Source: an uncultured Clostridia bacterium | GTDB lineage: Bacteria; Bacillota; Clostridia; Christensenellales; Aristaeellaceae | Assembly: GCA_934647235.1 (NCBI GenBank) | Contig: CAKUFG010000009.1 | Location: forward strand, 6,315 to 38,314 | Length of the DNA stretch: 32,000 nt | Reading direction: 5' to 3' | Part shown: piece after piece, positions 1 through 32,000 of the stretch | Position numbering within the stretch: position 1 is the first letter of the stretch | Layout of the letters: every line of letters begins with the position of its first letter | Notes under the pieces: model-generated | What the model was told of the DNA's origin: nothing | The model's input: only the letters and a program-made list of their open reading frames with translations | The model's database searches: none | Made by a program: the position numbers and the translations under genes

Positions 1-72
1 GAGAGTCAGTTTCCAGTTCGCGCGGCGGCTGTGCTTACGAGCCTTGGAGATTTTTCCTTTGGGAAGAGCCAT
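1..72 (-). CDS. rpmF: 50S ribosomal protein L32, N-terminal 24 codons (gene continues left of the window)
   Basis: Reverse complement of 1..72 translates MALPKGKISKARKHSRRANWKLTL, a typical L32 N-terminus. ATG at 70..72. It lies directly downstream of a DUF177 gene, the conserved yceD-rpmF arrangement. Confidence 0.75.
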   Translation of the reverse strand, partial: MALPKGKISKARKHSRRANWKLTL

Positions 73-74
73 GA

Positions 75-590
75 TTATACCTCCTGATCATTCTGATCCT
101 TATTAAACAAGTTTTTGAGCTTAGCGAAAGGATTATCAGCATCCTCCCGGCCAGCCGTGTACTGGGGCGCCATGCGCTTGTATCCGTCGCAATCAGGTCT
201 GCACAGGATACGGATGGGCAGCTCCAGCAGCGCCAATGTGAGCGCCAGGTGATTCAACTCTACCTTGGAATTGGCAAACACCTGACAATCCGGATCGTCC
301 TCCTGCTCGGGCGTTATCTTGTCCACCTGGGTAAACACTTCATGAAAGGGCACTTTCAGGTTTACGGTGGCCATCTCAAGGCAGTTGCAGCAGCGGGAGT
401 GGGCCGTGGCCGTCAGCGTGCCGTCGAGGGTGAGATGAGCGCCGGACATGGAAAAGCAACCTTCAAGGATCACGGGATCCTCGAACGTTACCGTTTCGCC
501 GCAGATATCCTGCGGTTCGATCCGCTCGTGATGGATAAACGGAAACGCCTCGCCAGGCGTTCGCATAGCGCGTGAAACATCCAGCAGCAA
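75..590 (-). CDS. DUF177 / YceD-family protein (large-subunit rRNA accumulation protein)
   Basis: The ORF-track protein (75..650) has the DUF177 architecture, including the C-terminal Cys cluster CRPDCDG and conserved position upstream of rpmF. I place the start at TTG 588..590, preceded by GGGAGGGAG. A consensus promoter lies inside the longer GTG-started ORF (see next feature). Confidence 0.75.
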   Translation of the reverse strand: MLLDVSRAMRTPGEAFPFIHHERIEPQDICGETVTFEDPVILEGCFSMSGAHLTLDGTLTATAHSRCCNCLEMATVNLKVPFHEVFTQVDKITPEQEDDPDCQVFANSKVELNHLALTLALLELPIRILCRPDCDGYKRMAPQYTAGREDADNPFAKLKNLFNKDQNDQEV

Positions 591-618
591 GGCACTCCCT
601 CCCATCGTGAACAGCACT

Positions 619-647
619 ATTATAGTTACGCGGCGCGCTTTTGTCAA
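619..647 (-). promoter_or_regulatory. Sigma-A type promoter for the DUF177-rpmF operon
   Basis: The minus strand reads TTGACA (642..647), a 17-nt spacer, then TATAAT (619..624). Both hexamers match consensus perfectly. Confidence 0.5.
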
Positions 648-762
648 CACTTTATCGCGCGATAATTGCCTTATTTTTGCAGGATTTTGCGTAATGTCCC
701 GATGCGATGCACTATATAATGAATAAATCGTGCCCAGGCAGGCAAAAAATTCTAATTACATG

Positions 763-791
763 TTTACAAACCCGCCCGTCCATGCTACAAT
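763..791 (+). promoter_or_regulatory. Sigma-A type promoter for rpsO
   Basis: TTTACA (763..768), 17-nt spacer ending in TGC, then TACAAT (786..791), giving an extended -10. This leaves a leader of about 105 nt before rpsO. Confidence 0.45.
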
Positions 792-902
792 GGTAAGCGT
801 GGTTTTTAGAACCGTGCGCTCGGGTTTCCGACACTCCAACGGCTTTCTGTGCGTGCGGCGATTGGATACGGGGCGCCACCCCCAAGAAGGAGGATCATTC
901 TT

Positions 903-1160
903 ATGATCAACAAGGCTGAAATTATGCAGACCTACGCCCGCCATGAAGGCGACACCGGTTCCCCCGAAGTACAGGTCGCTCTGCTGACCGCTCGCATCAA
1001 TCACCTGAACGAGCACCTCAAGAGCAACAAGAACGACCATCATAGCCGTCGCGGCCTGCTGCTGATGGTTGGTCAGCGCCGCGGCCTGCTGGAGTACCTC
1101 AAGAAGACCGACATCGAGCGTTACCGCACCCTGGTCGCTCAGCTGGGTCTGCGCAAGTAA
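903..1160 (+). CDS. rpsO: 30S ribosomal protein S15
   Basis: 85-aa product [40 protein letters not shown]... is unmistakably S15. ATG at 903 is preceded by AGAAGGAGGA (887..896). The ORF-track start at 849 is an upstream extension. Confidence 0.95.
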
Positions 1161-1169
1161 GCGCAAAGC

Positions 1170-1220
1170 AAGGCTAACGGGATCGCTTTGGCGTACGTTC
1201 GTCAAACCCCCGTTAGCCTT
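1170..1220 (+). promoter_or_regulatory. rpsO-pnp intergenic stem-loop (attenuator or processing-site candidate)
   Basis: AAGGCTAACGGG (1170..1181) pairs perfectly with CCCGTTAGCCTT (1209..1220) across a 27-nt loop. It is followed by TCTGTT, which is only a weak U-tract. Confidence 0.4.
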
Positions 1221-1288
1221 TCTGTTATGGATACGCGCGCAGGTGCGCCGTATCTGGAAGAAGAAGATGTGGAGGAGAGAGAAAAACA

Positions 1289-3454
1289 ATGGAAAACAAA
1301 ACGTACACGATGGACTTTGCGGGCTATCCGCTGTCGTTCAACTTCGGCCACTACGCCGAGCAGGCTGACGGCTCCGTGCTGGTGCGCATGGGCGATACCG
1401 CCGTGCTGGTAAACGTCTGCGCGTCCGATACCCCCCGCGAGGGCGTCGATTTCTTCCCGCTGGCGGTAGACTTTGAAGAAAAGCAGTACGCCGTGGGTAA
1501 AATTCCCGGCGGCTTCATCAAGCGTGAAGGCCGTCCCACCGAGAAGGCGACCCTGACCTGCCGCCTGATCGACCGTCCTCTGCGCCCGCTCTTCCCCAAG
1601 GGCATGCGCAACGACGTGCAGGTAGTGGCTACCGCCCTGTCCGTCGATACCAACATCCCCCCCGAAATCCCCGCGATGCTGGGCTCTTCCATCGCCCTGT
1701 GCGTCAGCGATATCCCCTGGGCGGGTCCCACGGGTTCCGTGCATGTGGGCATGGTGGACGGCAAGTTCATCCTGATGCCCAATGAGGAGCAGCGCGCCGC
1801 TTCCAAGATCAGCCTGTACGTGGCCGGCACCAAGGACGCCATCATGATGGTGGAAGCCGGCGCCAAGGAAGTCTCCGAGGATGTAATGCTGGATGCGATT
1901 CTCTTCGCGCACGAGGCCATCAAGGAGCTGGTTGCCTTCCAGGAGAAGATCGTGGCGGAAATCGGCAAGCCCAAGCGCGACTTCCCGCTCAACGTGACGG
2001 GCGAGGATATCACCGCCGCCGTCCGCGAGTATGCTTATGATAAGGCCAAGTGGTCCTTCGACACCTTCGACCGTGCCGAGCGCCAGCAGCGTGAGGAGCA
2101 GGTGAAGGCCGAGACCATCGAGCACTTTGCCGATATCTTCCCCGGCCGCGACGCCGAGGTTGCCGACGCCCTGTACTACCTGAACAAGGAAGTCATGCGC
2201 CGCCGCATCCTGGACGAAGGCATCCGTGCCGACGGCCGTAAGATCACCGAGATCCGCCCCATCTGGTGCGAAACCGGCATCCTGGCCCGCACCCACGGCA
2301 GCGCCGTGTTCACCCGCGGCCAGACCCAGGCCCTCACCGTGACCACCCTGGGTTCCCTGCGCGAGGCACAGATTCTGGACGGCCTGTCCAATGAGGAAAG
2401 CAAGCGCTATATCCATCATTATAATATGCCCCCCTACGCCACCGGCGAAGCGGGCCGCATGAAGGCCCCCGGCCGCCGCGAAATCGGTCATGGCGCGCTG
2501 GCGGAACGTGCGCTGGAGCCCGTGATCCCCTCTGAAGAGGAGTTCCCCTACGCGCTGCGTCTGGTCAGCGAAATCCTGTCCTCCAACGGTTCCTCCTCCA
2601 TGGCTTCCGTGTGCGGCAGCACCCTGTCGCTGATGGATGCGGGCGTGCCCATCAAGGCGCCCGTTGCCGGCGTGGCCATGGGCCTGATCAAGGATGATAA
2701 GAGCGACAAGGTGGTCGTTCTGTCCGACATCCAGGGTCTGGAAGACTTCCTGGGCGATATGGACTTCAAGGTGGCCGGCACCATGAACGGCATCACCGCC
2801 ATCCAGATGGATATCAAGATCAAGGGCATCGACCGTGCGATCCTGAGCCAGGCGCTGCGCCAGGCCCTGGAAGGCCGCCTGCACATCCTGGGCATCATGC
2901 TTGAGTGCCTGCCCGCGCCGCGCGCCAAGATGAGCCCCTACGCGCCCAAGATCATTTCCTTCAATATTAATCCCGATAAGATCCGCGAAGTCATCGGACC
3001 AGGCGGCAAGATGATTAACAAGATCATCGCCGAAACGGGCGTGAAGATCGACATCGAGGACGACGGCCGCGTGGCCATCGCCACCCCCGATGAAGAAGCC
3101 GCCGCCAAGGCGCGCCGCATCATCGAGGGCATCGCCAAGGATGTTGAGGTTGGCGAGGTATATCATGGCAAGGTTGTGCGCATCCTGTCTACCATGGGCG
3201 CGTTCGTAGAGCTGCTGCCCGGCAAGGACGGCCTGCTGCACATCTCCAAGCTGGCCAACGAGCGCGTTGAAAAGGTAGAGGACGTGCTCAACATCGGCGA
3301 CGAAGTAGAAGTTAAGGTCAGCGAGATCGACTCTCAGGGCCGCATCAACCTGATCCGCAACGACATCGTCTATACCCGTCCTGTGGGTCCGCGTCCCGGC
3401 AATGGCGGCGAGCGCCGCCGTCCCCCGCGCCGCGAGAGCAGCCACAACGACTAA
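1289..3454 (+). CDS. pnp: Polyribonucleotide nucleotidyltransferase (PNPase)
   Basis: 721 aa with two RNase PH-like domains, a KH domain and a C-terminal S1 domain (GEVYHGKVVRILSTMGAFVELLPGKDGLLHISKL). Shows the conserved rpsO-pnp synteny. Confidence 0.97.
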   Translation: MENKTYTMDFAGYPLSFNFGHYAEQADGSVLVRMGDTAVLVNVCASDTPREGVDFFPLAVDFEEKQYAVGKIPGGFIKREGRPTEKATLTCRLIDRPLRPLFPKGMRNDVQVVATALSVDTNIPPEIPAMLGSSIALCVSDIPWAGPTGSVHVGMVDGKFILMPNEEQRAASKISLYVAGTKDAIMMVEAGAKEVSEDVMLDAILFAHEAIKELVAFQEKIVAEIGKPKRDFPLNVTGEDITAAVREYAYDKAKWSFDTFDRAERQQREEQVKAETIEHFADIFPGRDAEVADALYYLNKEVMRRRILDEGIRADGRKITEIRPIWCETGILARTHGSAVFTRGQTQALTVTTLGSLREAQILDGLSNEESKRYIHHYNMPPYATGEAGRMKAPGRREIGHGALAERALEPVIPSEEEFPYALRLVSEILSSNGSSSMASVCGSTLSLMDAGVPIKAPVAGVAMGLIKDDKSDKVVVLSDIQGLEDFLGDMDFKVAGTMNGITAIQMDIKIKGIDRAILSQALRQALEGRLHILGIMLECLPAPRAKMSPYAPKIISFNINPDKIREVIGPGGKMINKIIAETGVKIDIEDDGRVAIATPDEEAAAKARRIIEGIAKDVEVGEVYHGKVVRILSTMGAFVELLPGKDGLLHISKLANERVEKVEDVLNIGDEVEVKVSEIDSQGRINLIRNDIVYTRPVGPRPGNGGERRRPPRRESSHND

Positions 3455-3468
3455 TCCATAATATCAAG

Positions 3469-3514
3469 CCGCAAAAGACAGGAGCCGCTTATCCGGCTCC
3501 TGCTTGCGGTTATT
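3469..3514 (+). terminator. Stem-loop downstream of pnp (terminator or attenuator)
   Basis: CAGGAGCCG (3479..3487) pairs with CGGCTCCTG (3494..3502). An outer helix pairs CCGCAA (3469..3474) with TTGCGG (3504..3509). TTATT follows. Confidence 0.45.
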
Positions 3515-3525
3515 GAGGGAACAAT

Positions 3526-4764
3526 ATGATTGAGCAATTTACCCTGCCAAACGGCCTGCGCGTGCTGTGCGAACAGCTGCCCCACCTGCGCTCGGTATCC
3601 ATGGGCGTGTGGGTCAAGGCTGGCTCCATCCTGGAGCGTGAGCACGAAAACGGCCTGTCGCACCTGATTGAGCACATGGCCTTCAAAGGCACCGGCCGGC
3701 GCAGCGCCAAACAGATCGCCCAGGAAATGGACGCGGTGGGCGGCTATCTCAACGCCGCCACCAGCAAGCTGTGCACCTGCTACTATGCCAAGGTGATCGA
3801 TGAAAACCTGCCGCTGGCCGCCGATATCCTGTCGGATATCGTGCGCTTCCCGGCGATCGATCCCAAGGAACTGGACAAGGAGCGCAACGTGGTGCTGGAG
3901 GAAATCTCCATGACCGACGACTCGCCCGAGGACGTGGCCTACGATCTGATCGCCTCGGCCATGTTCGGCAAGCAGCCGCTGGGGCAGACCATCCTGGGCC
4001 CGCGCGAGCTGATCGCCAGCTATACGCGGGAGGATATTCTGGCCTTCCGTGCCCGCCATTACAGCCCCATGAACACCTGCGTGGCCATCGCGGGCAACTT
4101 TGATCTGAACCAGGTGAAGGATCTGATGGCGCAGCGCTTTGGCGACTGGACGGGCGGCGCGGGTGAGATTTTCCCCGTCAATGCCGTCAACCAGAACCCG
4201 CAGACGCTGACCGCCGATAAGGATACCGAGCAGGCGCACATCTGCCTGGGCTATCGCGGCAAGCCGCTGGGCGACGCAGACGCTTACCCCATGGCTGTAT
4301 TCAACAGCATCCTGGGCGGCGGTATGTCCTCGCGTCTGTTCCAGCGCATCCGCGAGGAATCCGCCATGGCCTACAGCGTGTATTCCGCGCCATCCGCCTA
4401 CCCGCACTGCGGCGATTTCACCATCTACGCGGCCGTATCCCCCCGCAACGTCAAAACCGTGCTGGCGCAGATCGACGAGGAAACCTCCCTGCTGGTGCGC
4501 GAGGGCGCCACGCAGGAGGAGTTTGACATGGCCAAGGCGCAGCTCAAGGGCGGCTTTATCCTGGGTCAGGAAAGCGCCTATAACCGCATGAACAGCATGG
4601 GCAGCAACATGGCGCTGATGAACCGCGTGATCACCACGGATGAGACCATCCGCCGCATTGAGGCCGTAACGCCCGAGGATGTGCGCCGCGTGGCCGCCGA
4701 AACGCTGGGCAGCCCGCGCTCGCAGGCCTTTGTGGGCAAGAAAATCGCCAGATACCTGAAATAA
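3526..4764 (+). CDS. M16-family (insulinase/pitrilysin-like) zinc peptidase
   Basis: 412 aa with the inverted zinc motif HxxEH (SHLIEHMAFKG). A gene at this position after pnp is typical of Firmicutes. Confidence 0.9.
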   Translation: MIEQFTLPNGLRVLCEQLPHLRSVSMGVWVKAGSILEREHENGLSHLIEHMAFKGTGRRSAKQIAQEMDAVGGYLNAATSKLCTCYYAKVIDENLPLAADILSDIVRFPAIDPKELDKERNVVLEEISMTDDSPEDVAYDLIASAMFGKQPLGQTILGPRELIASYTREDILAFRARHYSPMNTCVAIAGNFDLNQVKDLMAQRFGDWTGGAGEIFPVNAVNQNPQTLTADKDTEQAHICLGYRGKPLGDADAYPMAVFNSILGGGMSSRLFQRIREESAMAYSVYSAPSAYPHCGDFTIYAAVSPRNVKTVLAQIDEETSLLVREGATQEEFDMAKAQLKGGFILGQESAYNRMNSMGSNMALMNRVITTDETIRRIEAVTPEDVRRVAAETLGSPRSQAFVGKKIARYLK

Positions 4765-4783
4765 AAGCACGGAGGAAGCCCCC

Positions 4784-5149
4784 ATGGACAGACTGGATGA
4801 AATTTTCCGCATGCAAAAGGCCCTGAACGACGATATCATCGCCCGCCGCCATCTGGAAGGCATCAGCGATACCGAGTGGCTCCAGAAGCAGACGCTGGCC
4901 ATGCTGTCCGAAATGGCCGAGCTGCTTAACGAGGTCAACTTCAAATGGTGGAAAAACCCCAAGCCCGTGGATGATCACGCCGTCAAAGAAGAGCTGGTGG
5001 ATATCCTGCATTTCTTTGTCAGCATGTGCCTGCGCGCCGGGATGACCCCGCAGGAAATGTATGATATTTATATGGAAAAAAACCGCGAAAATTTCAACCG
5101 TCAGCTGGGCCTGAGCAAAAAAGAGGGCTATAAAGCGCCGGAAGCCTGA
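4784..5149 (+). CDS. All-alpha NTP pyrophosphohydrolase, dimeric-dUTPase (dUTPase_2)/MazG-like
   Basis: 121 aa with motifs NFKWWK and EELVDILHFFVS and a ...KNRENFNRQ tail, which I recognise as the dUTPase_2 family pattern. Family assignment is from memory, not from a search. Confidence 0.6.
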   Translation: MDRLDEIFRMQKALNDDIIARRHLEGISDTEWLQKQTLAMLSEMAELLNEVNFKWWKNPKPVDDHAVKEELVDILHFFVSMCLRAGMTPQEMYDIYMEKNRENFNRQLGLSKKEGYKAPEA

Positions 5150-5171
5150 TTGATATCCAAATATTGATAAA

Positions 5172-5212
5172 AGCGTGTTTCTGTCCTGAACAGACAGGGA
5201 CGCGCTTTTTTG
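5172..5212 (+). terminator. Rho-independent terminator
   Basis: AGCGTGTTTCTGTC pairs with GACAGGGACGCGCT (with G-U pairs) and is followed by a T6 run. Confidence 0.7.
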
Positions 5213-5363
5213 TCATCCCGGCATCTTAAATCATGTATAATTCGGTTTTGTTTTTACAAATAGTGCATTTTGCAATTTGGTGAAACCGCATACATGATGC
5301 CCAATCATAGCGTGTTTTGTCATCAAACACGTTACTTTTTGTCCGCACATTGTCTCAACCAAT

Positions 5364-5372
5364 TGTTATAAT
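5364..5372 (+). promoter_or_regulatory. Extended -10 promoter element upstream of the sugar ABC operon
   Basis: TGTTATAAT matches TGnTATAAT and lies about 65 nt upstream of the ATG at 5438. No good -35 hexamer is present. Confidence 0.4.
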
Positions 5373-5437
5373 ACAAGCATAAGGTACGCACACGTTGTCT
5401 CAGCTGCGTATCAAAAAACTGAAAGGAACCTACCACT

Positions 5438-7012
5438 ATGAAGAAACTGCTCGGTCTGCTCCTGGCGGCGATGCTTGTGCTCTCCCTCTTCAGCGGCGCT
5501 GCCGTTGCCGAGGGCCGCAAGGAATTCACCTTCTGGGCCGCCTACAACCCCACCTACCAGCTTGACTGGGAAGGCATGAAGTGCTGGAAACTGCTTGAAG
5601 AAGCCACCGGCATCCACATCAACTGGGTACTGTACGCCAACTCCGGCGAAATGAAGGAAAAGCTGGCCGTCACGCTGGGCGGCGGCGATACTTCCGTCTT
5701 CCCCGATGCTTTCTTCCGCTGCTCCATCAACGCGAACCAGCTGAAGAAATACGGCCCCGAAGGCCTGTTCATGGACATCACCGACCTGGTGAAGGAATAC
5801 GCCCCCAACGCCTGCGCGGCCATCGATAAGATGGACGGCTGGTCCATCGTGAGCGATCCTGAAACCGGCGCGATCTACTCCCTGCCCTGCATCACCGACA
5901 GCCTGTCCGGCCGTATGCTGCCCAAGCTGTTCCTCAACGTGGAAATGATGCACAATGTGGGCGTGGACAAGATGCCCGAAACCCTGGACGAGTTCTATGA
6001 TCTGCTCGTTAAGGTGCGTGAGAACGACGCCAACGGCAACGGCGACCCCAACGACGAGGTTGGCATCGTCACCAACACCCTGGATCGTTACATCAACCTG
6101 TTCTCCGGCGCGTTCGGCATCCATAACCGCGGCCGTGAAGACATGCTGGTGGACGCTGATCCCACGGACGAAACCAAGATCCGCTTCGTCTACACCACCG
6201 ACGAATACCGCGCTCTGCTGTCCTTCGTCAATCGCCTGTACGAAGAAAAGCTGATCGACCAGAACATTCTGACCCCCTCCACCTCCAACATGGTGGCTCT
6301 GGGCAGCCAGAACCAGATCTTCGCCCTGGCCTACACCAACATGGCCGCTGCGGCTGTGGATGAGAGCAAGTACGAGCCCCTCACCCTGTCCCTGACCGGC
6401 CCTGGCGGCAACGCCTGGAACACCCTGAACAAGGGTATCGGCGTGGGCAACTTCGTCATCTCCAGCACCGTTTCCAAGGAAGACGCCATCACCCTGGTCA
6501 AGTGGGCTGACACCCTGTTCACCCTGGACGGCGCCCGCATGCTGTACTTCGGCGAAGAGAATGTGGACTACACCCTGGATGAAAACGGCTATCCGAACTA
6601 TGTCGATTCCATCCTCAGCCAGGTAAGCACCGACAACCCCTATGACAAGGTTATCTCCGCCATCACCTGCTTCGCCTCCGGCGGTATCCCCGGCTACAAG
6701 GACGACATCTGGAACTGCGGCTCCGAGTGCCGCGGCAAGGCCCTGGAAGCTGCCCAGAATATGGAGCAGTTTACCAACAAAATCACCTGGTCCTTCAACT
6801 TCACCATCGACGAAAACGACGAGCTGTCCGCCCTGAAGACCGACGTCGTCACCAACTGCCACAACGTCTATCGCGCCAAGTTCATCGAAGGCACCCTGGA
6901 CGTGGATGACGACGCTGTATGGAACCAGTATCTGGAAGAAATGCAGTCCGCCGGTCTGGAAGATCTGATTGCGATCTATCAGGCTGCCCTGGACCGTATG
7001 CTGGCCAAATAA
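5438..7012 (+). CDS. ABC transporter extracellular solute-binding protein, LplA/YtcQ-like (family 1, large sugar-binding type)
   Basis: 524 aa with an N-terminal signal peptide (MKKLLGLLLAAMLVLSLFSGAAVA). Size and composition fit LplA-type SBPs, and two cognate permease genes follow. Confidence 0.88.
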   Translation: MKKLLGLLLAAMLVLSLFSGAAVAEGRKEFTFWAAYNPTYQLDWEGMKCWKLLEEATGIHINWVLYANSGEMKEKLAVTLGGGDTSVFPDAFFRCSINANQLKKYGPEGLFMDITDLVKEYAPNACAAIDKMDGWSIVSDPETGAIYSLPCITDSLSGRMLPKLFLNVEMMHNVGVDKMPETLDEFYDLLVKVRENDANGNGDPNDEVGIVTNTLDRYINLFSGAFGIHNRGREDMLVDADPTDETKIRFVYTTDEYRALLSFVNRLYEEKLIDQNILTPSTSNMVALGSQNQIFALAYTNMAAAAVDESKYEPLTLSLTGPGGNAWNTLNKGIGVGNFVISSTVSKEDAITLVKWADTLFTLDGARMLYFGEENVDYTLDENGYPNYVDSILSQVSTDNPYDKVISAITCFASGGIPGYKDDIWNCGSECRGKALEAAQNMEQFTNKITWSFNFTIDENDELSALKTDVVTNCHNVYRAKFIEGTLDVDDDAVWNQYLEEMQSAGLEDLIAIYQAALDRMLAK

Positions 7013-7108
7013 GCTAACCTCACAACCAACCGGGCACGGCGCGGCAGCGTGCCGTGCCCGGACTTTTTCACCCGCTGCACTTTTAGCCTGTACAGGAGGT
7101 TATCCTTC

Positions 7109-8110
7109 ATGAGCACCATGTCCGGCAATGATCTGCGCTATGGCCAGCATCATCAAGCGTCCCTCTGGGTGCGCATCAAGCGCGAAATGTATAACAATTG
7201 GCAGCTGTATCTGCTCGTAGTGCCGGGCGTTGTGTACCTGCTGCTGTTTTCCTACTGGCCGATGCTGGGCGTACAGCTCGCCTTTAAGGATTACAAGCCT
7301 ACCAAGGGCATCTGGCTGAGCCCCTGGGCCTCCCAGCGCGGCACGGTCAACGTTCTCAAGCACTTCCAGCGCTTCCTCAACGCCAAATACTCCATACGTG
7401 TAATCGGCAATACGATCATTCTGAGCCTTTACACCCTGATTGCGAAGTTTCCCTGTGCCATCCTGCTGGCGCTGATGATGAACGAGCTTCGTTCCGTCCG
7501 CTACCGCAAATGCGTGCAGTTTGTCACCTACGCTCCCCATTTTGTATCCACCATCGTGGTCGTAGGTATCATCCAGCAGATTTTCGCCTCCCCCGACGCG
7601 CTGATGCGGACGGGCGGCATTGTCAACACCGTGCTGAACGCCATGGGCCTGCCCACGGTGAAATTTCTTACCAGCGAAGGCGCCTTCCGCCATCTGTACG
7701 TATGGTCCACCGTATGGTCCAGCGCCGGCTGGAGCTCCATCATCTATATGGCCGCGCTGTCGGGCGTAGATCCGCAGCAGTATGAGGCCGCCACGCTGGA
7801 CGGCGCGAGCAAGCTGCAGAAGGTATGGTACATCACCATCCCCGTGCTGATTCCCACGGCGGTGACGCTGTTCATCCTGGATGTCGGCCATATGATGAAC
7901 CTGGGCTTTGAAAAGGCCTATGCCCTGCAGAACGACAGCAACCGCACCACCGGCGAAATCCTGTCCACCTACGTTTACGAGCAGGGTATCCGCGACGGCA
8001 ACTATTCCTTCTCCACGGCTGTCAGCCTGTTCAACTCGATGATCAACCTGGTGCTGATCTGCCTGGTCAATATGATCAGCAAAAAGGTCAGCGAAATCAG
8101 TCTGTGGTAA
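7109..8110 (+). CDS. Sugar ABC transporter permease (LplB-like, MalF-type)
   Basis: Multi-TM protein with an EAA-loop region (YEAATLDGASKLQKVWYITIP). The start is set at ATG 7109, preceded by AGGAGG (7094..7099). The ORF-track start at 7049 is an extension. Confidence 0.9.
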   Translation: MSTMSGNDLRYGQHHQASLWVRIKREMYNNWQLYLLVVPGVVYLLLFSYWPMLGVQLAFKDYKPTKGIWLSPWASQRGTVNVLKHFQRFLNAKYSIRVIGNTIILSLYTLIAKFPCAILLALMMNELRSVRYRKCVQFVTYAPHFVSTIVVVGIIQQIFASPDALMRTGGIVNTVLNAMGLPTVKFLTSEGAFRHLYVWSTVWSSAGWSSIIYMAALSGVDPQQYEAATLDGASKLQKVWYITIPVLIPTAVTLFILDVGHMMNLGFEKAYALQNDSNRTTGEILSTYVYEQGIRDGNYSFSTAVSLFNSMINLVLICLVNMISKKVSEISLW

Positions 8111-8125
8111 AGGAGGGCGACAACA

Positions 8126-9031
8126 ATGAAGCAAAAGCATACGGGCACTGCCATCAAAAGAACGCGCGGCGACGTGGTATTCGATGTGATCAACGTGCTG
8201 CTGCTGCTGATCGTCATGCTGGTGGTTGCCTATCCGCTGGTCTATGCTATCAGCTGCTCCTTCTCCAGCCCCCTGCTGGTGGTGCAGAGCAAGGTTTACC
8301 TGCTGCCCAAGGGGCTGACCACCATCGCCTATGAGCGCGTGTTCAACAATCAGCAGATCCTGACCGGCTATAAAAACACCATTTTCTACACCCTGCTGGG
8401 CACGGCCATCAACATCGTCCTGACCACGATGACCGCCTACCCCCTCTCCCGCCGCGATTTCAAGGCGCGCAGGTTCATCACCTTCCTGTTCACCTTTACC
8501 ATGCTGTTCTCCGGCGGCCTGATTCCCACGTTCCTGGTGGTCCGCGATCTGGGGCTGATGAACACCGTGTGGGCGCTGATCCTGCCCGGCGCAATCAGCA
8601 GCTGGAACATGTTCATCATGAAGAACTACTTCCAGACCAGCATTCCCGGCGAATTGTACGAGGCGGCGCGCATCGACGGCGCAGACAACATGAAGATTCT
8701 CTTCCAGCTGGTGCTGCCCCTGTCCATGCCCATCCTCGCCGTCATGGTGCTCTATTACGGCGTTTCGCACTGGAACTCCTACTTCAGCGCCCTGGTATAT
8801 ATCCGCGATTCCGACCGCTATCCCCTGCAGCTGGTCATGCGCAATTTCTTCAGCGGCCAGGACTATGTGGAGCAGGGCGCGGGCGGCGACGACGCCACGC
8901 AGATGCTGCTGCTGAACGAGACGATGAAGTATGCGCTGATCGTAATCGCCTCCGTTCCCATGCTGATCCTGTATCCGCTGCTGCAGCGCTTCTTCGTCAA
9001 GGGCGTTATGCTGGGCGCAATCAAGGGCTAA
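8126..9031 (+). CDS. Sugar ABC transporter permease (LplC-like, MalG-type)
   Basis: 301 aa, multi-TM, with EAA loop YEAARIDGADNMKILFQLVLP. Confidence 0.9.
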   Translation: MKQKHTGTAIKRTRGDVVFDVINVLLLLIVMLVVAYPLVYAISCSFSSPLLVVQSKVYLLPKGLTTIAYERVFNNQQILTGYKNTIFYTLLGTAINIVLTTMTAYPLSRRDFKARRFITFLFTFTMLFSGGLIPTFLVVRDLGLMNTVWALILPGAISSWNMFIMKNYFQTSIPGELYEAARIDGADNMKILFQLVLPLSMPILAVMVLYYGVSHWNSYFSALVYIRDSDRYPLQLVMRNFFSGQDYVEQGAGGDDATQMLLLNETMKYALIVIASVPMLILYPLLQRFFVKGVMLGAIKG

Positions 9032-9053
9032 GGCAATTTCGGCATATAAGCAT

Positions 9054-9107
9054 AAAAAACACCCCTTCGCATGGTTTTCCGTGCGGAGGGGTGCTGCTTT
9101 GCAGCTT
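9054..9107. terminator. Bidirectional terminator region between the convergent ABC operon and tlyA
   Basis: CACCCCTTCGCA (9060..9071) pairs with TGCGGAGGGGTG (9082..9093). An A-run lies on the left (a T-run for the minus strand). A second small hairpin, GCTGC-TTT-GCAGC followed by TTTTATTT, lies on the right. Confidence 0.6.
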
Positions 9108-9908
9108 TTATTTGTCCAGCGTTTCGTGCGCCTCGCGCACCAGCGCGGCGATCTGCGCGTCGTCCGGCATATCGCCCGCACCGGGACGGATATCGGCCAG
9201 AAACTCGATATTTCCCTTGGGCCCCTTGATGGGCGAATAGGTAAAGCCCGCCACATGCCAGCCGATTTCGGCGGCATATTCGCGCACATTCTGCAGCACG
9301 CGCGCATGCACGGCGGGATCGCGTACCACGCCGTTCTTGCCCACCTGGCCGCGCCCGGCTTCAAACTGCGGCTTTACCAGGGTGAGGAACCTTCCCTGCT
9401 CCCCCATAATGCCCGCCGCCACCGGCAGGATCAGCCGAATGGAAATAAAGGATACGTCCATCACCGTCAGCGTCGGCTGCAGCGGCACCATGTCGGGCGT
9501 CAGCGTGCGGGCGTTGGTACGTTCCATCACGGTGACGCGCTCATCCTGCCGCAGCTTCCAATCCAACTGCCCATAACCCACATCAATGGCGTATACATGC
9601 GCCGCGCCGTGACGCAGCAGTACATCGGTAAAGCCGCCGGCGGCAGCGCCGATATCCATAGCGACCACGCCCGTCACATCCGCGCCGAACACCGTGATCG
9701 CACGCTCAATCTTGTGCCCGCCCCGGCTGGCCAGGGAGTCCACCTCGCCGCGCAGGATCAGCTCCTGATTGTCCTCCACGGTTTCAGAAGCCTTGAGCAC
9801 CTTCTTTTCGCCGATGTAAATCTGCCCGGCCATAATCAGCGCCTGCGCTTTTTCGCGGCTGGCCGCAATGCCCCGGCTTACCAGCGCGCTGTCTACCCGC
9901 GTTTTCAT
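9108..9908 (-). CDS. tlyA: TlyA-family 16S/23S rRNA (cytidine-2'-O)-methyltransferase
   Basis: 266 aa with an N-terminal S4-like domain and an FtsJ-type SAM motif (DIGAAAGGFTDVLL). Its start overlaps the dxs stop (ATGA). Confidence 0.9.
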   Translation of the reverse strand: MKTRVDSALVSRGIAASREKAQALIMAGQIYIGEKKVLKASETVEDNQELILRGEVDSLASRGGHKIERAITVFGADVTGVVAMDIGAAAGGFTDVLLRHGAAHVYAIDVGYGQLDWKLRQDERVTVMERTNARTLTPDMVPLQPTLTVMDVSFISIRLILPVAAGIMGEQGRFLTLVKPQFEAGRGQVGKNGVVRDPAVHARVLQNVREYAAEIGWHVAGFTYSPIKGPKGNIEFLADIRPGAGDMPDDAQIAALVREAHETLDK

Positions 9909-11764
9909 GCTTTGCTCTCCTTACTCCATTGTGCAATGCGGCGTGACGCGCTCTCCGCGTCCAGCCCATGCGCGCGCAGCTGTAATGTATGATCGCCCTG
10001 CGTGGCGCACAAGCCCTCGACGCCCAGCGTCAGCAGCGGCTTGCACACGCCATGCGCGGCACGCCAGGCCGGTACCAGGCTGCTCAGTCCGCCCGATACC
10101 ACGCCTTCCTCCATTGTAACCAGCGGCGTATCCTTCAGCTGATTCAGCACGCTCTCATCCAGCGGCTGAACACAGTCCGCCGCATATACGGCGCAGCCCA
10201 GGCCCTGCTGATCCAGCAGCTCCGCCGCGCGCATGGCCTGCCCGACCATCGCGCCGCAGGCCAGGATGGCCAGATCGTCCCCTGCCCGCAGCAGCGGCCA
10301 CATGGGCGCATAGGTCTTTTCCCGCGGCCAAACAGCCACATTTTCGGTTTCCGTCTTGCCATAGCGAATAGCAGCAGGCGCATCCAGCGTCAGCGCATAG
10401 CGAATCATGGCCTGCAGCTCATCGCATGTGGCGGCGTTGAGCACCGTCAGCCCCGGCATCTGCGTCAAAAACGCATTGCCGTACACGCCCTGATGCGTCA
10501 CGCCGTCTTCAATCAGCCCCGCGCGGTCCACCAGGAAACACACCGGCAGATGCTGCTCGCACACGTCCAGCAGGATCTGATCATACGCGCGCTGCAGAAA
10601 GCTGTCGTAAATCGCCACAAATGGGCGCGCGCCGCCTGCCGCCAGGCCCGCAGCCATGGTGACGGCATGCTCCTCGGCAATGCCTACATCGTACAGGCGA
10701 TCCGGATAACGGCTGGCAAACTCGCCAAGCCCCGTGCTGCCCGTCATGGCGGCCGTCACGGCCACAATGCGGGGATCCTTTGCAGCCAGGGCGCACAGCG
10801 CGCCGCCTGCCGCCCTGCCCATGGATTTGCCCGCAGGGGTGAGCGGCTCGCCGGTATGCACATCGAAGGGCGGCGTGCCGTGCAGGCGGGTCGGATCGCT
10901 CTCCGCCTGGGAATAGCCGCGTCCCTTTTTTGTAACCACATGAATCAGCACCGGCTCGTCCAGCTGCCGCGCGCGGCGGAACAGCCGCTCCAGCCCTGAG
11001 ATATCGCGCCCATCCACCGGGCCAAGATAGTGAAAGCCCAGCGAGTCGAACAGCCGATCCTGCACAAAGATATTGCGCAGCGAATTCTTGATGCGCTGAA
11101 AGAAATCATGCAGGCTGTTGCCAACTACAGGAATACGGCGCAGAAAATCGCCGACTGCGTGCTTGGCCTCAAACCACCCCTTGCTGGAGCGCATGTGCGT
11201 AAGATATCGCGAAACCGCGCCCACGTTGCGCGAGATGCTCATGCCGTTATCGTTGAGCACCACGATCATGCGCAGCTTGCTGCTGCCCGCGTCGCTGAGG
11301 GCCTCATAGCACATGCCGCCCGTCAGCGCGCCGTCGCCCACGACGGCCACCACGTTCTGGCTGCCGCCCGAGAGGTCTCTCGCCCGCGCCATGCCGACCG
11401 CCGCCGATATGGCCGTGGATGCGTGGCCGGTATCGAAGGCGTCGTAGGGGCTTTCCTCCCTGCGGGGGAAGCCCGCCAGCCCGCCGAACTGCCGCAGGGT
11501 GTCAAAGCTGTCCGCGCGGCCCGTCAGCAGCTTATGGGCATAACACTGATGCCCCACGTCAAAAATCAAAGCGTCCTTTGGAAAGTCAAACGCGCGATGC
11601 AGGGCGATGGTCAGCTCCACCACCCCCAGGTTGGAGGCCAGATGGCCGCCGTTGCGCGACACGCTGTCGATGATGCGCGCGCGCAGCTCCTGCGCCAGCA
11701 CGGGCAGCTCCTTGCGGGACAGGCGCCTGACGTCCTCGGAAGAATGAATCCGCTCTAAAACCAT
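9905..11764 (-). CDS. dxs: 1-deoxy-D-xylulose-5-phosphate synthase
   Basis: Motifs GHQCYAHKLLTGR and GDGALTGGMCYEAL (TPP binding) are present. The start is set at ATG 11764 (MVLERIHSSEDV...), preceded by AAGGAG. The ORF-track start at 11944 is an upstream extension. Confidence 0.95.
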   Translation of the reverse strand: MVLERIHSSEDVRRLSRKELPVLAQELRARIIDSVSRNGGHLASNLGVVELTIALHRAFDFPKDALIFDVGHQCYAHKLLTGRADSFDTLRQFGGLAGFPRREESPYDAFDTGHASTAISAAVGMARARDLSGGSQNVVAVVGDGALTGGMCYEALSDAGSSKLRMIVVLNDNGMSISRNVGAVSRYLTHMRSSKGWFEAKHAVGDFLRRIPVVGNSLHDFFQRIKNSLRNIFVQDRLFDSLGFHYLGPVDGRDISGLERLFRRARQLDEPVLIHVVTKKGRGYSQAESDPTRLHGTPPFDVHTGEPLTPAGKSMGRAAGGALCALAAKDPRIVAVTAAMTGSTGLGEFASRYPDRLYDVGIAEEHAVTMAAGLAAGGARPFVAIYDSFLQRAYDQILLDVCEQHLPVCFLVDRAGLIEDGVTHQGVYGNAFLTQMPGLTVLNAATCDELQAMIRYALTLDAPAAIRYGKTETENVAVWPREKTYAPMWPLLRAGDDLAILACGAMVGQAMRAAELLDQQGLGCAVYAADCVQPLDESVLNQLKDTPLVTMEEGVVSGGLSSLVPAWRAAHGVCKPLLTLGVEGLCATQGDHTLQLRAHGLDAESASRRIAQWSKESKA

Positions 11765-29545: not shown

Positions 29546-29596
29546 GCAGCGGGGCCTGCCTTCTGCGCATTGCAGATCACAAGCCCCGTTTTTTTA
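29546..29596. terminator. Bidirectional terminator between the DHH pair and the spoVT 3' end
   Basis: CGGGGC (29550..29555) pairs with GCCCCG (29583..29588), with an inner TCTGC/GCAGA hairpin. T7 lies on the right and an A-run on the left. Confidence 0.6.
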
Positions 29597-30058
29597 CTGC
29601 TCCATCTGACGGCCGACGATACCCGCCGCGGTTTCGGCCACCTTGACCTCGGTATCCCCCATACGCGCGCCCTGCTCGCGGGACAGCAGCAGCACCGCGC
29701 CGATGGCCTCGCCATCGGCAATGATGGGCGATACCACCTGCGCCGTATAGCCGCCGTTATCGTCCTCGTTGGTCACGCTCATCACCTTGCCGCCTGTCTG
29801 GCGGTTATAGGTCTGCGTCTGGCGGCTGGCGATGGCCTGCTCCAGATCGTGGCTGATGGGTTTATCCCACAGCTCCTTTTTGTTTACGCCGCTGGCCGCC
29901 ACCACCTGATCCCGGTCCACAATACAGGCGATGTGCCCCAGGGAGCGGAAAATCGACTCGGTGTAATCCTTGGCGAAGGAGGACATTTCCCCAATGGGCG
30001 AGTATTTTTTCAGAATTACCTCGCCGTCCCTGTCCGTATAGATTTCCAGCGGGTCGCC
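29594..30058 (-). pseudogene. spoVT: 3' fragment of spoVT (about residues 31-178 of the stage V sporulation regulator), lacking its own start and the first half of the AbrB-like domain
   Basis: The translation GDPLEIYTDRDGEVILKKYSPIGEMSSFAKDYTESIFRSLGH...PIIADGEAIGAVLLLS...VKVAETAAGIVGRQMEQ* is colinear with B. subtilis SpoVT as I recall it (...REGDPLEIFVDRDGEVILKKYSPISELGDFAKEY...AVETAAGFLARQMEQ*). The preceding residues (...EKPVTVVSG) do not match SpoVT. Confidence 0.8.
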
Positions 30059-31762
30059 GCCGCTGACAACAGTGACCGGCTTTTCGGACGCGGCGCTGTG
30101 CGCGGGGGGCGAATAGCGCAGGCCCTGGGCATGCTGCGCCGGCGCATCGATGCGGCCGCCGGCCCGCAGCAGCGCGTCGATATCGGCCTTGAGCTGAATA
30201 TCGATGCGATCCTCGTACACCGTGATGCGCTCAATCAGAAATTCCAGATCCTGCTTGTTCAGCCTGTCCTTCTGCAGGATTTCATCAAAGATTTCCAGCA
30301 CGGTTTTGGATACGCGGTTCAGGCGGATCACGCTATTGCGATGATCGGCATACAGCGCCAGCTGCGCCTCCAGCCCCCTGAGCTTGGCCAGCTCCTCGTT
30401 TTCCAGCGCGTCGTAGGTTTCGTTGATCAGGGTTTCCTGCTCCGGGCGGCGGGCAAGCTCGCTCAGCTTCTGACGGGCCAGACGCCTGAGCTGCTCCTTG
30501 CCCTGCTCAATCTGACGGTTGAGCAGCAGCAGCGCCTTCTCCCCCTGGGCGATGGCGTCCGGCTCGCTGCGGATGGCCTCCTGGAGCGCGTCGATCATGC
30601 CCGCGCTGTTCTCCCTGATCCTGCGGATGTACATTTTCAGCAGATCGTCCAGCAAGTCCACACGGGTGTGGTGGGCGGTGCAGCCCTTGCGCCCCCGCCG
30701 GTGATAGCTACCGCAGGTGTAGGCCGGGGCCAGATCATTGCGGCTCAGGGCGAACATGGGGCTGCCGCAGTCGCCGCAGAACAGAAAGCCGGTATAATGG
30801 TGATCGTATTTGCTTACGCCCCGATAGGCGCTGGTGGTACGCTTTTTGATCTGCTCCTGCGTATAATGAAAGGTACGGTAATCGATAATGGCCGCATGAT
30901 GGTTTTCAAACACGATGTGGCTGTCCGCGTCGGTCCTGAAATCCTTGCCGTTGATGCCCTTGCGGGTATACTTGCCCTGGCGCAGGGTGCCCATATAGAA
31001 ATCATTCTGCAGCATGCCCTGAATGGTGATGATGCTCCATTCCGGCCTGGCCTTCAGATGGCAGACCGTGCCGTCCGCCTCGATGCGGGCCTTTTCAGCC
31101 ATGCGCGGCGTGGGGATGCCCTGCTCGGTGAGATAATTGGCGATCCGCTTATACCCCCAGCCCTCGTTATAGCGCTGAAACACCAGGCGCACCACCTCCG
31201 CCGCCGGGCCGTCCACCTCATAGGTCATGTTTTTGCGATTGGTGATGACATAGCCATAGGGCACGGAGCACACCCATTTTCCATCCTGCTGGCGGCGCCT
31301 GATGACGGATTTTACCTTCTGGCTGGAATCGGTGACGGGCATTTCGTTAAGCAGAAAGCGCAGGCGGATGTTGGTCCAGTCGTCGCGGGTGGGATAATCG
31401 ATACTGTCGCCGATGGCGATGATGCGCAGGCCAGCGTCCCGCAGATCCTCCAATTCCACCAGGCCGCGCGAGTTGCGGCGGCTGAAACGGGACAGATCCT
31501 TGACGATCATAATATCATAATCGCCCAGCATCAGGCGCGGGCGCATTCTCTGATAGCTTTCCCGCTGCTCAAAGGTATAGCCGCTGCGGTCGCGGTCCAC
31601 ATAAAAATCCAGGCTGCTGCCCGGAAAGCGCTTCTGCACATAATCCTGAATAATGGCCTTCTGGTTTTCAATGCTGGTGTTATCCCGGTCCGCCTCCACA
31701 TCGACGGAGATGCGGCAGTACCCGGCCACCCGATAGCGCTTGGGCTCGGCTTGCGCTTGCAT
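29594..31762 (-). CDS. Chimeric ORF: complete large serine recombinase (TndX/TnpX-like; resolvase, recombinase, zinc-ribbon, coiled-coil and DUF4368-like domains) running in frame into the 3' part of spoVT
   Basis: The N-terminus YRVAGYCRISVDVE... carries the catalytic Ser, followed by DRDRSG, VKDLSRFSRR and the zinc ribbon CGDCGSPM...YTCGSYHRRGRKGCTAHH. A coiled-coil region and LEFLIERITVYEDRIDIQL follow. From about residue 569 the sequence is SpoVT (see next feature). RBS is AGGAGGG, 7 nt before ATG 31762. Confidence 0.9.
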   Translation of the reverse strand: MQAQAEPKRYRVAGYCRISVDVEADRDNTSIENQKAIIQDYVQKRFPGSSLDFYVDRDRSGYTFEQRESYQRMRPRLMLGDYDIMIVKDLSRFSRRNSRGLVELEDLRDAGLRIIAIGDSIDYPTRDDWTNIRLRFLLNEMPVTDSSQKVKSVIRRRQQDGKWVCSVPYGYVITNRKNMTYEVDGPAAEVVRLVFQRYNEGWGYKRIANYLTEQGIPTPRMAEKARIEADGTVCHLKARPEWSIITIQGMLQNDFYMGTLRQGKYTRKGINGKDFRTDADSHIVFENHHAAIIDYRTFHYTQEQIKKRTTSAYRGVSKYDHHYTGFLFCGDCGSPMFALSRNDLAPAYTCGSYHRRGRKGCTAHHTRVDLLDDLLKMYIRRIRENSAGMIDALQEAIRSEPDAIAQGEKALLLLNRQIEQGKEQLRRLARQKLSELARRPEQETLINETYDALENEELAKLRGLEAQLALYADHRNSVIRLNRVSKTVLEIFDEILQKDRLNKQDLEFLIERITVYEDRIDIQLKADIDALLRAGGRIDAPAQHAQGLRYSPPAHSAASEKPVTVVSGGDPLEIYTDRDGEVILKKYSPIGEMSSFAKDYTESIFRSLGHIACIVDRDQVVAASGVNKKELWDKPISHDLEQAIASRQTQTYNRQTGGKVMSVTNEDDNGGYTAQVVSPIIADGEAIGAVLLLSREQGARMGDTEVKVAETAAGIVGRQMEQ
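30062..30074 (+). repeat. Direct repeat copy A, GCTGACAACAGTG, at the recombinase-tail/spoVT junction
   Basis: Exact 13-mer identical to 31784..31796. It lies 4 nt from the first SpoVT-like codon. Confidence 0.6.
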
Positions 31763-31783: not shown

Positions 31784-31796
31784 GCTGACAACAGTG
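31784..31796 (+). repeat. Direct repeat copy B, GCTGACAACAGTG, 22 nt upstream of the recombinase ATG
   Basis: Exact 13-mer identical to 30062..30074, located just upstream of the recombinase Shine-Dalgarno. Confidence 0.6.
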
Positions 31797-31859
31797 TAAG
31801 GGAGAATCGGCGCGGCGGCAAGATAAATTGCCGTTTTTTGTCATGGGAATTGCTGCCGT

Positions 31860-32000
31860 TCAGCGATTGCAGCGCAGCAGCCCGGCCGCGCATTCCATCA
31901 GGCTTTCCTGCCCGGAGCGGAACACCGCCACCCGATAGGGCGTGCCGCGATACTGCCGGCAGAGCGGCTCCAGCAAATCGCCGTCCGTCTCGCCGCCGGC
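31860..32000 (-). CDS. 3' end of a hypothetical element-borne ORF (partial, continues beyond the window)
   Basis: An open frame from the window edge, with strongly GC-rich third positions, ends ...LLEPLCRQYRGTPYRVAVFRSGQESLMECAAGLLRCNR* with TGA at 31860..31862. No family is recognised. Confidence 0.4.
   Translation of the reverse strand, partial: AGGETDGDLLEPLCRQYRGTPYRVAVFRSGQESLMECAAGLLRCNR

Follow-up and report, generated by a model that had tools for sequence, protein, structure and literature searches.

A family of large serine recombinase islands integrated in the forespore gene spoVT of uncultured gut Clostridia

The accepted rationale for the residence of gene-intervening elements in mother-cell genes is that their excision there is harmless, as the mother-cell genome is discarded at the end of sporulation. 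The sporulation genes listed so far as targets of such elements, namely sigK, spsM, spoVFB, spoVR, gerE, and yabG, are all mother-cell genes (PMC5595907, PMC10747680), and both SPbeta and C. difficile's skin element combine a constitutively made recombinase with a directionality factor placed under a sporulation sigma factor (PMC5595907). Here, we describe a family of islands carrying a large serine recombinase (LSR) that departs from the mother-cell target shared by the skin, SPbeta, vfbin, vrin, gin, and yin elements, being integrated in spoVT, a sigma-F/sigma-G-dependent gene that is essential for the formation of heat-resistant spores in C. difficile (PMC3789822). The family was recognised in a 32,000-nucleotide stretch of an uncultured Clostridia bacterium (contig CAKUFG010000009.1), referred to as the window, to whose numbering all window coordinates refer. 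An earlier note on this DNA, made from the letters alone, had proposed that spoVT is split here by a mobile element with its recombinase gene at the edge, and had pointed out that the known elements sit in mother-cell genes whereas spoVT is expressed in the forespore, a contrast that the cited literature upholds. The note was also unaware of any description of spoVT as such a target, and no report of spoVT as the target of a serine recombinase, a prophage, or a gene-intervening element was found in the searchable full-text literature.

The gene in question (29594 to 31762, minus strand) is a single ATG-initiated open reading frame (ORF) of 722 amino acids (aa), in which a complete LSR is followed by a linker and by SpoVT residues 31-184 (host numbering) up to the native spoVT stop. 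The earlier note had read it in the same way, and the profile matches bear this out. Pfam recognises a Resolvase domain (PF00239, residues 12-163, E = 1.3e-14), a Recombinase domain (PF07508, residues 188-308, E = 5.4e-23), a Zn_ribbon_recom domain (PF13408, residues 324-379, E = 2.2e-11), and SpoVT_C, the C-terminal GAF-like domain of SpoVT (PF15714, residues 592-721, E = 3.2e-43). Positions 28-180 of the 180 in the NCBIfam profile TIGR02851 (spore_V_T) are matched by residues 567-721 of the ORF (E = 5.1e-53), and residues 28-178 of the B. subtilis SpoVT crystal structure 2w1t align to residues 566-722 (E = 8e-36), with 2w1r matching as well; these profile and structure scores are far above chance. 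The TIGR02851 score of 179.6 bits falls under the full-length cut-off of 235.9, as expected because the SpoVT part is truncated, the AbrB-type swapped-hairpin DNA-binding domain (residues 1 to ~50) being represented only from profile position 28 onwards. By both its incomplete N-terminal domain and its score under the cut-off, the ORF does not qualify as a SpoVT protein.

The recombinase proper (residues 1-533; 30164 to 31762, minus strand), as delimited by Pfam, alignment, and an AlphaFold2 (AF2) model, comprises in order a resolvase catalytic domain, a recombinase domain, a zinc ribbon, a long coiled coil, and final beta strands ending in ...DIDALLR. Its catalytic residues R17 and S19 (motif YCRISVD) are invariant in 52 homologues, and its closest solved structure is SprA/YokA of SPbeta (9dxh, E = 8e-15). 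With a predicted catalytic serine, the PF07508 domain, and a zinc ribbon with an embedded coiled coil, it has the domain composition by which LSRs are classified. The linker or tail that follows (residues 534-568; 30059 to 30163, minus strand) is element-encoded, variable in the alignment, and disordered in the AF2 model; across the homologues it always stays in frame despite its variable length and sequence and its in-frame indels. In the AF2 model of the whole ORF (overall predicted template-modelling score, pTM, 0.34), a low-confidence linker at 537-569 joins the recombinase domains, with long helices at residues 368-497, to a SpoVT part that folds separately. The remainder of the gene is the host spoVT 3' part (codons 37-184 and stop; 29594 to 30040, minus strand), which is collinear with, and ~96% identical to, the intact gene of the related locus L009.

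The point of insertion, which the earlier note had put at about codon 30, could be sharpened to an 18-bp common core, GGCGACCCGCTGGAAATC (30041 to 30058, minus strand), which encodes GDPLEI and corresponds to spoVT codons 31-36. SpoVT-derived sequence begins at this GDPLEI, that is, at ORF residue 569 and from window position 30058 downward. The evidence comes from the comparison of four att-type sites, each from a different genome. The empty site, attB (…RIREGDPLEIYTD…), is found in L009 (GTDB genome Clostridiales bacterium W1P21.023, ~96% identical to the window), which has an intact 184-aa spoVT; when this uninterrupted gene is aligned with the window, as the note had advised, DNA homology starts exactly at the first base of the core. 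A left junction, attL, was recovered by a degenerate junction-pattern scan of metagenomes in a human-gut contig (L030), which carries the spoVT promoter and codons 1-36 ending in the core, followed by foreign DNA of 43% GC that holds Fic, a RhuM-like gene, and the C-terminus of HsdR on the other strand. The same scan also matched ~100-aa phage genes and one intact spoVT with Ile after the core. Lastly, an attP-like site was found in L003, which carries a 97.5%-identical copy of the recombinase of locus L018, matches it through the 18-mer, and then diverges. The 18 bp are regarded as the common core because the homology edges of L009 and L003 both fall at this 18-mer; it is the same in attR (the window) and attB, differs by two changes in attL, and by one in the attP-like site.

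A conserved arm, GTCACTGTTGTCAG, lies in the linker at window positions 30063-30076 (family consensus GTCAMnnnnnTCAG) and is taken as the putative P half-site of attP, while the first 14 nucleotides past the core in L003, CTTATTCATTTCAC, repeat the arm 5' of the core imperfectly and in inverted orientation. The attP-like site is thereby dyad-symmetric over ~50 bp and apparently centred on the CC of the core, and attB shows a CGTAT...ATACG symmetry about the same CC point, from which we infer that crossover would take place near this central CC. Two side observations concern look-alikes of these sequences. A core-like sequence, GGCGACGTGCTGGAAATC (encoding GDVLEI, two mismatches), occurs inside an RluD-like pseudouridine synthase gene (L003 4209, minus strand; L022 6005), ~2.2 kb from the attP-like site. 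The match is probably fortuitous, but a pseudo-site is conceivable. An exact 13-nucleotide repeat, CACTGTTGTCAGC, occurs at window positions 30062-30074 and 31784-31796 (minus strand), that is, in the att arm and in the -10 region and 5' untranslated region of the recombinase gene. Binding of the recombinase to its own promoter through this repeat was rejected as a family feature, for the repeat is significant in the window lineage only (0.007) and absent in ten other loci.

The P arm also encodes a conserved V-x-V-[VI]-S-x motif, which joins the variable linker to the core. Unfused relatives of the recombinase (P0364, P0373, and the copy in L003) retain a V-x-V-V motif and then end in short unrelated tails. 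This comparison places the putative attP inside the recombinase ORF itself, in its 3' end, so that integration would always yield a chimera in which the native tail is replaced by SpoVT residues 37-184. The chimera is therefore regarded as the automatic outcome of the attP layout, and the attached SpoVT part most likely rides along as a passenger, although its GAF domain may have a regulatory role on the recombinase.

An assembly chimera was rejected as an explanation, since the identical 722-aa protein is present on at least seven contigs from independent samples and the architecture is shared by more than 120 protein clusters, in which the recombinase part is 52-100% identical. Some of these clusters hold hundreds to more than 1000 member sequences. 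All of the 120 top homologues have the LSR-SpoVT architecture in frame, and 119 of them end at the native SpoVT stop. The earlier note had reasoned that conservation of the architecture as a stand-alone gene would speak against an insertion; the architecture is indeed conserved in these clusters, but because it always adjoins variable cargo, it does not refute one. In public records, such proteins are mis-annotated as "stage V sporulation T C-terminal domain-containing protein" or "recombinase family protein".

The two halves of the chimera are decoupled across the 120 homologues, one of which is 55% identical in the recombinase and 97% in SpoVT, and another 77% and 51%, respectively. Between L005 and L018, the recombinases are 97% identical (synonymous divergence, dS, 0.155) and the SpoVT parts only 59.7% (dS 0.885), a contrast that shows recent horizontal transfer, with the divergent host gene entered at the same codon. 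These values indicate that the recombinase half and the SpoVT half have separate evolutionary histories. The island DNA upstream of the recombinase has only a small ORF in common between lineages and is otherwise variable. In L026, it encodes SIR2, an AAA ATPase, Phd/ParE, and a DnaG-type primase/DUF5906 at 45% GC within a host of 60% GC, and the genes downstream of the fusion are the canonical spoVT neighbourhood of MurJ/SpoVB-like, MazG/YabN, and HU. The cargo comprises AbiEii and a tyrosine integrase in L007, HsdR in L008, and RhuM, a polysaccharide cluster, and an RHS toxin in further loci; taken together, the family cargo covers defence systems, toxin-antitoxins, primase, and polysaccharide or metabolic genes, the GC content of which lies as much as 15 points under that of the host. 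No phage structural, packaging, or lysis genes were seen in 11 lineages, in which at most 10 kb of recombinase-proximal cargo is visible (~1.4-7.5 kb in L005, L007, and L008), and no relatives were found in 2.9 million viral contigs. A degenerate junction-pattern scan of viral contigs matched only complete ~100-aa phage genes resembling AbrB or the SpoVT N-terminus. Such AbrB-type proteins are encoded on two IMG/VR contigs, 130 kb and 64 kb long (L028 3208-3268, which is the same as L031, and L029 5477-5800, the same as L032); over the first 36 residues they hardly differ from SpoVT (MKATGIIRRIDDLGRVVIPKEIRRTL.IREGDP.EI), after which the sequence diverges.

These sequence comparisons identify the ORF not as a domain fusion but as attR, the right junction of an LSR-integrated mobile island in spoVT that belongs to a widespread family. 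The mobile element proposed by the earlier note, which interrupts the coding part of a sporulation gene and has a serine recombinase gene at its edge, is thus backed by an empty attB, a left junction, an attP-like site, decoupled halves, and variable cargo. What appears to be new is the siting of a gene-intervening serine-recombinase island in a forespore gene, together with an attP inside the integrase ORF, the kind of element itself being known.

A second conserved component of the family may bear on how the island behaves during sporulation. Directly upstream of the recombinase gene in 10 of 11 lineages lies an ORF of 62-88 aa with the signature …W[LM]…Y.V.[VF][FIY].SG..L……LL..N. In the window genome it encodes 62 aa, of which the last 46 codons and the stop fall at 31860 to 32000 (minus strand), its start and promoter lying just past the window end; it is a candidate recombination directionality factor (RDF). 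Two copies (8816-9001 and 9711-9890) were observed upstream of one recombinase gene in L041. In L001, the locus of the window's own genome, which reaches 10 kb past the window end, a terminator-like hairpin lies 5' of the promoter region of the small ORF, and the promoter region itself reads GCATA-N17-CACACTG, with CACAATA or CAAAATA in close relatives. The intact spoVT promoters of the same lineages read G[CT]ATA-N17-[ACG]ACAATA or CATACTA and lie equally far from the start. The recombinase gene is itself preceded by a conserved sigma-70-like stretch, TTGCCG-N17-TACACT (31793 to 31821, minus strand), which matches at 8 of 12 positions in the window genome, under the threshold of the scan tool, and at 9 of 12 in relatives, which have TTGCCA.

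The reading that we favour, and hold to be reasonably probable as a whole, is that of an LSR island integrated in spoVT, with a forespore-timed restoration of spoVT brought about by the directionality factor. The recombinase would be made constitutively, and the adjacent 62-88-aa protein would act as the directionality factor, transcribed from a forespore promoter of the sigma-F/sigma-G type. In sporulating cells, excision or inversion of the island in the forespore chromosome would then restore spoVT when it is needed. The excised circle would stay in the spore, because the forespore neither divides nor replicates, and the recombinase alone could re-insert it after germination. Such a cycle might constitute the first programmed germ-line DNA rearrangement in bacterial sporulation, in which an island gates spore maturation without being lost and the GAF domain of SpoVT, present on the recombinase only in the integrated state, may help to set directionality or timing, a proposal that we put forward only tentatively.

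The link of this reading to the forespore is the small-ORF promoter, the sequence of which resembles the forespore-type promoter of spoVT itself and thereby suggests, but does not prove, excision at that stage. A weight matrix trained only on eight intact-spoVT promoters gave empirical p values of 0.0008-0.005 for the region upstream of the small ORF in six of ten loci and below 0.035 in nine, as against 0.75 for the region upstream of the recombinase and 0.05-0.39 for five other upstream regions, with null windows that were mostly coding DNA, which favours intergenic sequences. Several observations weigh against the favoured reading, besides the promoter call being one of sequence resemblance. 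The small ORF is missing beside the recombinase in L026, and profile searches of it against PDB and PHROGs gave no match, nor does it show similarity to known directionality factors. No contig in any genome seen carries both attL and attR, and the single attP-like contig stands against hundreds of attR contigs. The spoVT 3' fragment has not decayed, which speaks for the reading: its ratio of nonsynonymous to synonymous divergence (dN/dS) is mostly 0.01-0.18, and 0.04 against L009, but these values may largely predate the insertion because the element is horizontally mobile. Further points against the reading come from the window genome's own locus and are taken up below with the reading on which they bear.

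The most serious alternative, although we consider it unlikely, is that the island simply knocks out spoVT without developmental repair, using the conserved 5' end of the gene as a landing site, so that carriers form no mature spores and excision is rare and serves transfer or loss. The N-terminal spoVT coding sequence is near-identical across all intact loci, and two unrelated recombinase systems hit the same conserved 100 bp, as would fit a choice of site by conservation. The second system came to light because the 90% cluster of the window protein also includes "SpoVT" proteins of 178-186 aa with foreign N-termini (MTQA…, MKFFLCEYLTRS…), whose loci are those of the window's host species, with the same downstream genes and 98.9% identity to L009. 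There, a second, unrelated element interrupts spoVT at codon 10/11, a site that lies 60 bp upstream of the window-type core, with no in-frame fusion (L043 378-5993 and L046 4517-10561; also L044, L045, L047, and L048). It carries three tandem LSR genes of 560, 569-571, and 517-524 aa and DUF6870, with sigma/HTH, ParM-like, and DUF3854 genes further up. Because two unrelated elements insert there, the 5' region of spoVT can be called a recurrent serine-recombinase target. The knock-out would also account for the preponderance of attR contigs over the lone attP-like contig and for the presence of empty and occupied sites within the same species group, and recent horizontal movement means that intact spoVT fragments need not reflect long-term function. 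It would, however, leave unexplained the conserved small ORF with its spoVT-like promoter, and a costly loss, since heat-resistant spores are abolished without spoVT in C. difficile, is hard to square with clusters of so many members. Nor has the spoVT 3' fragment decayed in 119 of the 120 homologues, even where the recombinase is broken: in L007 (4662-6253), a frameshift and three in-frame stops disrupt the recombinase gene, while the spoVT 3' part beside it is intact. The broken gene may reflect either decay of the enzyme, with the insertion locked, or an error in a metagenome-assembled genome.

The earlier note had expected the spoVT 5' part beyond position 32000; a regular-expression and tblastn search found none in the window or in the 10 kb beyond it, and none lies within 10 kb in the 11 fusion-bearing lineages; a left junction was found only in another genome, L030. 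Upstream of the recombinase, L001 is a patchwork with cellular-type genes. Positions 1-4475 are syntenic with a relative, L034 (a 95% relative reached through a 662-aa gene), positions 4476-6223 are unique and include HipA_C and LOG genes, and positions 7787-11704 are again unique. Between the two unique stretches, a block at 6224-7786 (yitT, a 160-aa gene, and the 5' part of a methyltransferase gene) corresponds to L009 7710-9083 and is inverted relative to the spoVT 3' part. In L009, the block lies just upstream of the intact spoVT, with the 160-aa gene broken and the methyltransferase truncated at codon 27; it is 90% identical between the two loci, and the flanks are 96% identical. As the upstream region is rearranged and the yitT block inverted, a clean insertion is not demonstrated for the window genome, and this too counts against the favoured reading. 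An inversion-type switch, a paralogous captured block, or a lost 5' fragment is possible in this lineage. As a separate observation, the HipA_C kinase-toxin-like and LOG-family genes just past the window (L001 4595-5656) form the left part of a lower-GC stretch by the ~4475 breakpoint.

A reversible inversion switch in the window clade, by which the segment between the spoVT site and a chromosomal attP would flip so that spoVT is off in growth and on in the forespore with no loss of DNA, is improbable in our judgement, even though parts of the locus invite it. The genes beside the recombinase in the window, L004, and L018 are of the kinds usual in cells, and the GC content there dips only slightly; the yitT block, relative to the spoVT 3' part, is oriented one way in L001 and the opposite way in L009; and the lack of a 5' fragment within 10 kb would follow. 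Chromosomal-type TrmL/HAD/RluD-like genes begin within 175 bp of the attP-like site of L003 and are chromosomal in other strains. When the TrmL-like gene was used as a handle for the left junction, it was found beside other neighbours in other strains, with no spoVT fragment, and no homology was found between the far side of L003 and the ~4475 synteny breakpoint of L001. Against the switch, circle integration always gives directly repeated sites, and an additional rearrangement would therefore be required. How the two junctions are oriented to each other was not seen in any genome, and distant family members carry typical island cargo. A simple inversion of the yitT-to-recombinase segment was tried and rejected, as the reverse-oriented spoVT 5' part that it predicts beside yitT is absent in L001.

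A selected fusion protein, that is, a domesticated recombinase encoded by a stand-alone host gene with the GAF-like domain of SpoVT as a sensor or dimerisation module, is very improbable and has already been largely refuted, for although more than 120 clusters, with identities down to 52%, keep the architecture and hold the frame open through a linker that varies, and the SpoVT part is an independent module in the AF2 model, the halves differ in evolutionary history, the junction is the edge of homology to intact spoVT and leaves only half of the AbrB-type DNA-binding domain, left-junction and attP-like sites are found, and a normal spoVT neighbourhood lies downstream with variable cargo on the other side.

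The remainder of the window is ordinary chromosome, with genes for PNPase, an M16 peptidase, a sugar ABC transporter, an ECF sigma factor, glycogen phosphorylase, a GDSL lipase, and two DHH phosphoesterases.

An island family in a forespore gene breaks the mother-cell rule, and there are two outcomes to be considered: either these islands are widespread blockers of sporulation, or they follow a germ-line-compatible cycle of excision and re-insertion or of inversion. Blockers of sporulation in gut Clostridia would bear on the transmission and persistence of spore-forming commensals. For genome engineering, the family offers serine integrases with a conserved target of 18-bp core and a candidate new family of directionality factors, and it provides a clean natural case of an attP lying within a serine-integrase gene.

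Among the described systems, the skin element with SpoIVCA in sigK (B. subtilis and C. difficile) is similar in that an LSR gene lies at the element edge and a sporulation regulator gene is split, and the spoVT islands resemble the skin elements further in sharing only the recombinase between otherwise unrelated cargos (Galperin preprint). The gene split by skin is nevertheless a mother-cell gene on a genome that is discarded, whereas spoVT belongs to the forespore; SpoIVCA has an ORF of its own and, unlike the spoVT-island enzyme, is not fused to the target, and the excision of skin is shown by experiment, whereas the spoVT island is known from its sequence. SPbeta with SprA and SprB in spsM provides the nearest solved relative of the recombinase, an extended core of 16 bp compared with 18 bp here, and the logic proposed for the spoVT island, in which a constitutive recombinase is steered by a small, sporulation-driven directionality factor. 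SPbeta is, however, a functional phage, whereas the spoVT-island loci were seen without phage genes, and its sprB is specific to the mother cell, in contrast to the candidate factor of the spoVT island, which has a putative forespore-type promoter and no similarity to known factors. The gin element with GirC and GirX in gerE of Bacillus cereus is, like the spoVT island, a non-phage gene-intervening island; it carries restriction-modification and other cargo, serine recombinases, and a small RDF (PMC5595907), and yin in yabG of C. botulinum illustrates that new target genes keep emerging (PMC10747680). Both gin and yin differ in that their targets are mother-cell genes, their recombinases are not read into the target, and they are confined to a few strains, whereas the spoVT-island family spans many uncultured gut Clostridia.

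Two systems from outside sporulation complete the comparison. The Listeria comK prophage (A118/phi10403S) excises to restore its gene in a surviving cell and then re-integrates, a behaviour termed active lysogeny. The likeness lies in a serine-integrase element that occupies a regulatory gene in a cell whose survival is required and that acts as a reversible germ-line switch, the reversibility being hypothetical for the spoVT island; the differences lie in the trigger (the phagosome as opposed to sporulation), in the host and gene, and in the comK element being a true phage, the concept itself being cited in PMC10747680.

In the myxophage Mx8, attP lies within the coding sequence of intP, and integration alters the C-terminus of the enzyme. 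The spoVT islands share this placement of a putative attP in the integrase gene, yet Mx8 Int is a tyrosine recombinase, and the new C-terminus that it acquires is not the folded domain of a host regulator.

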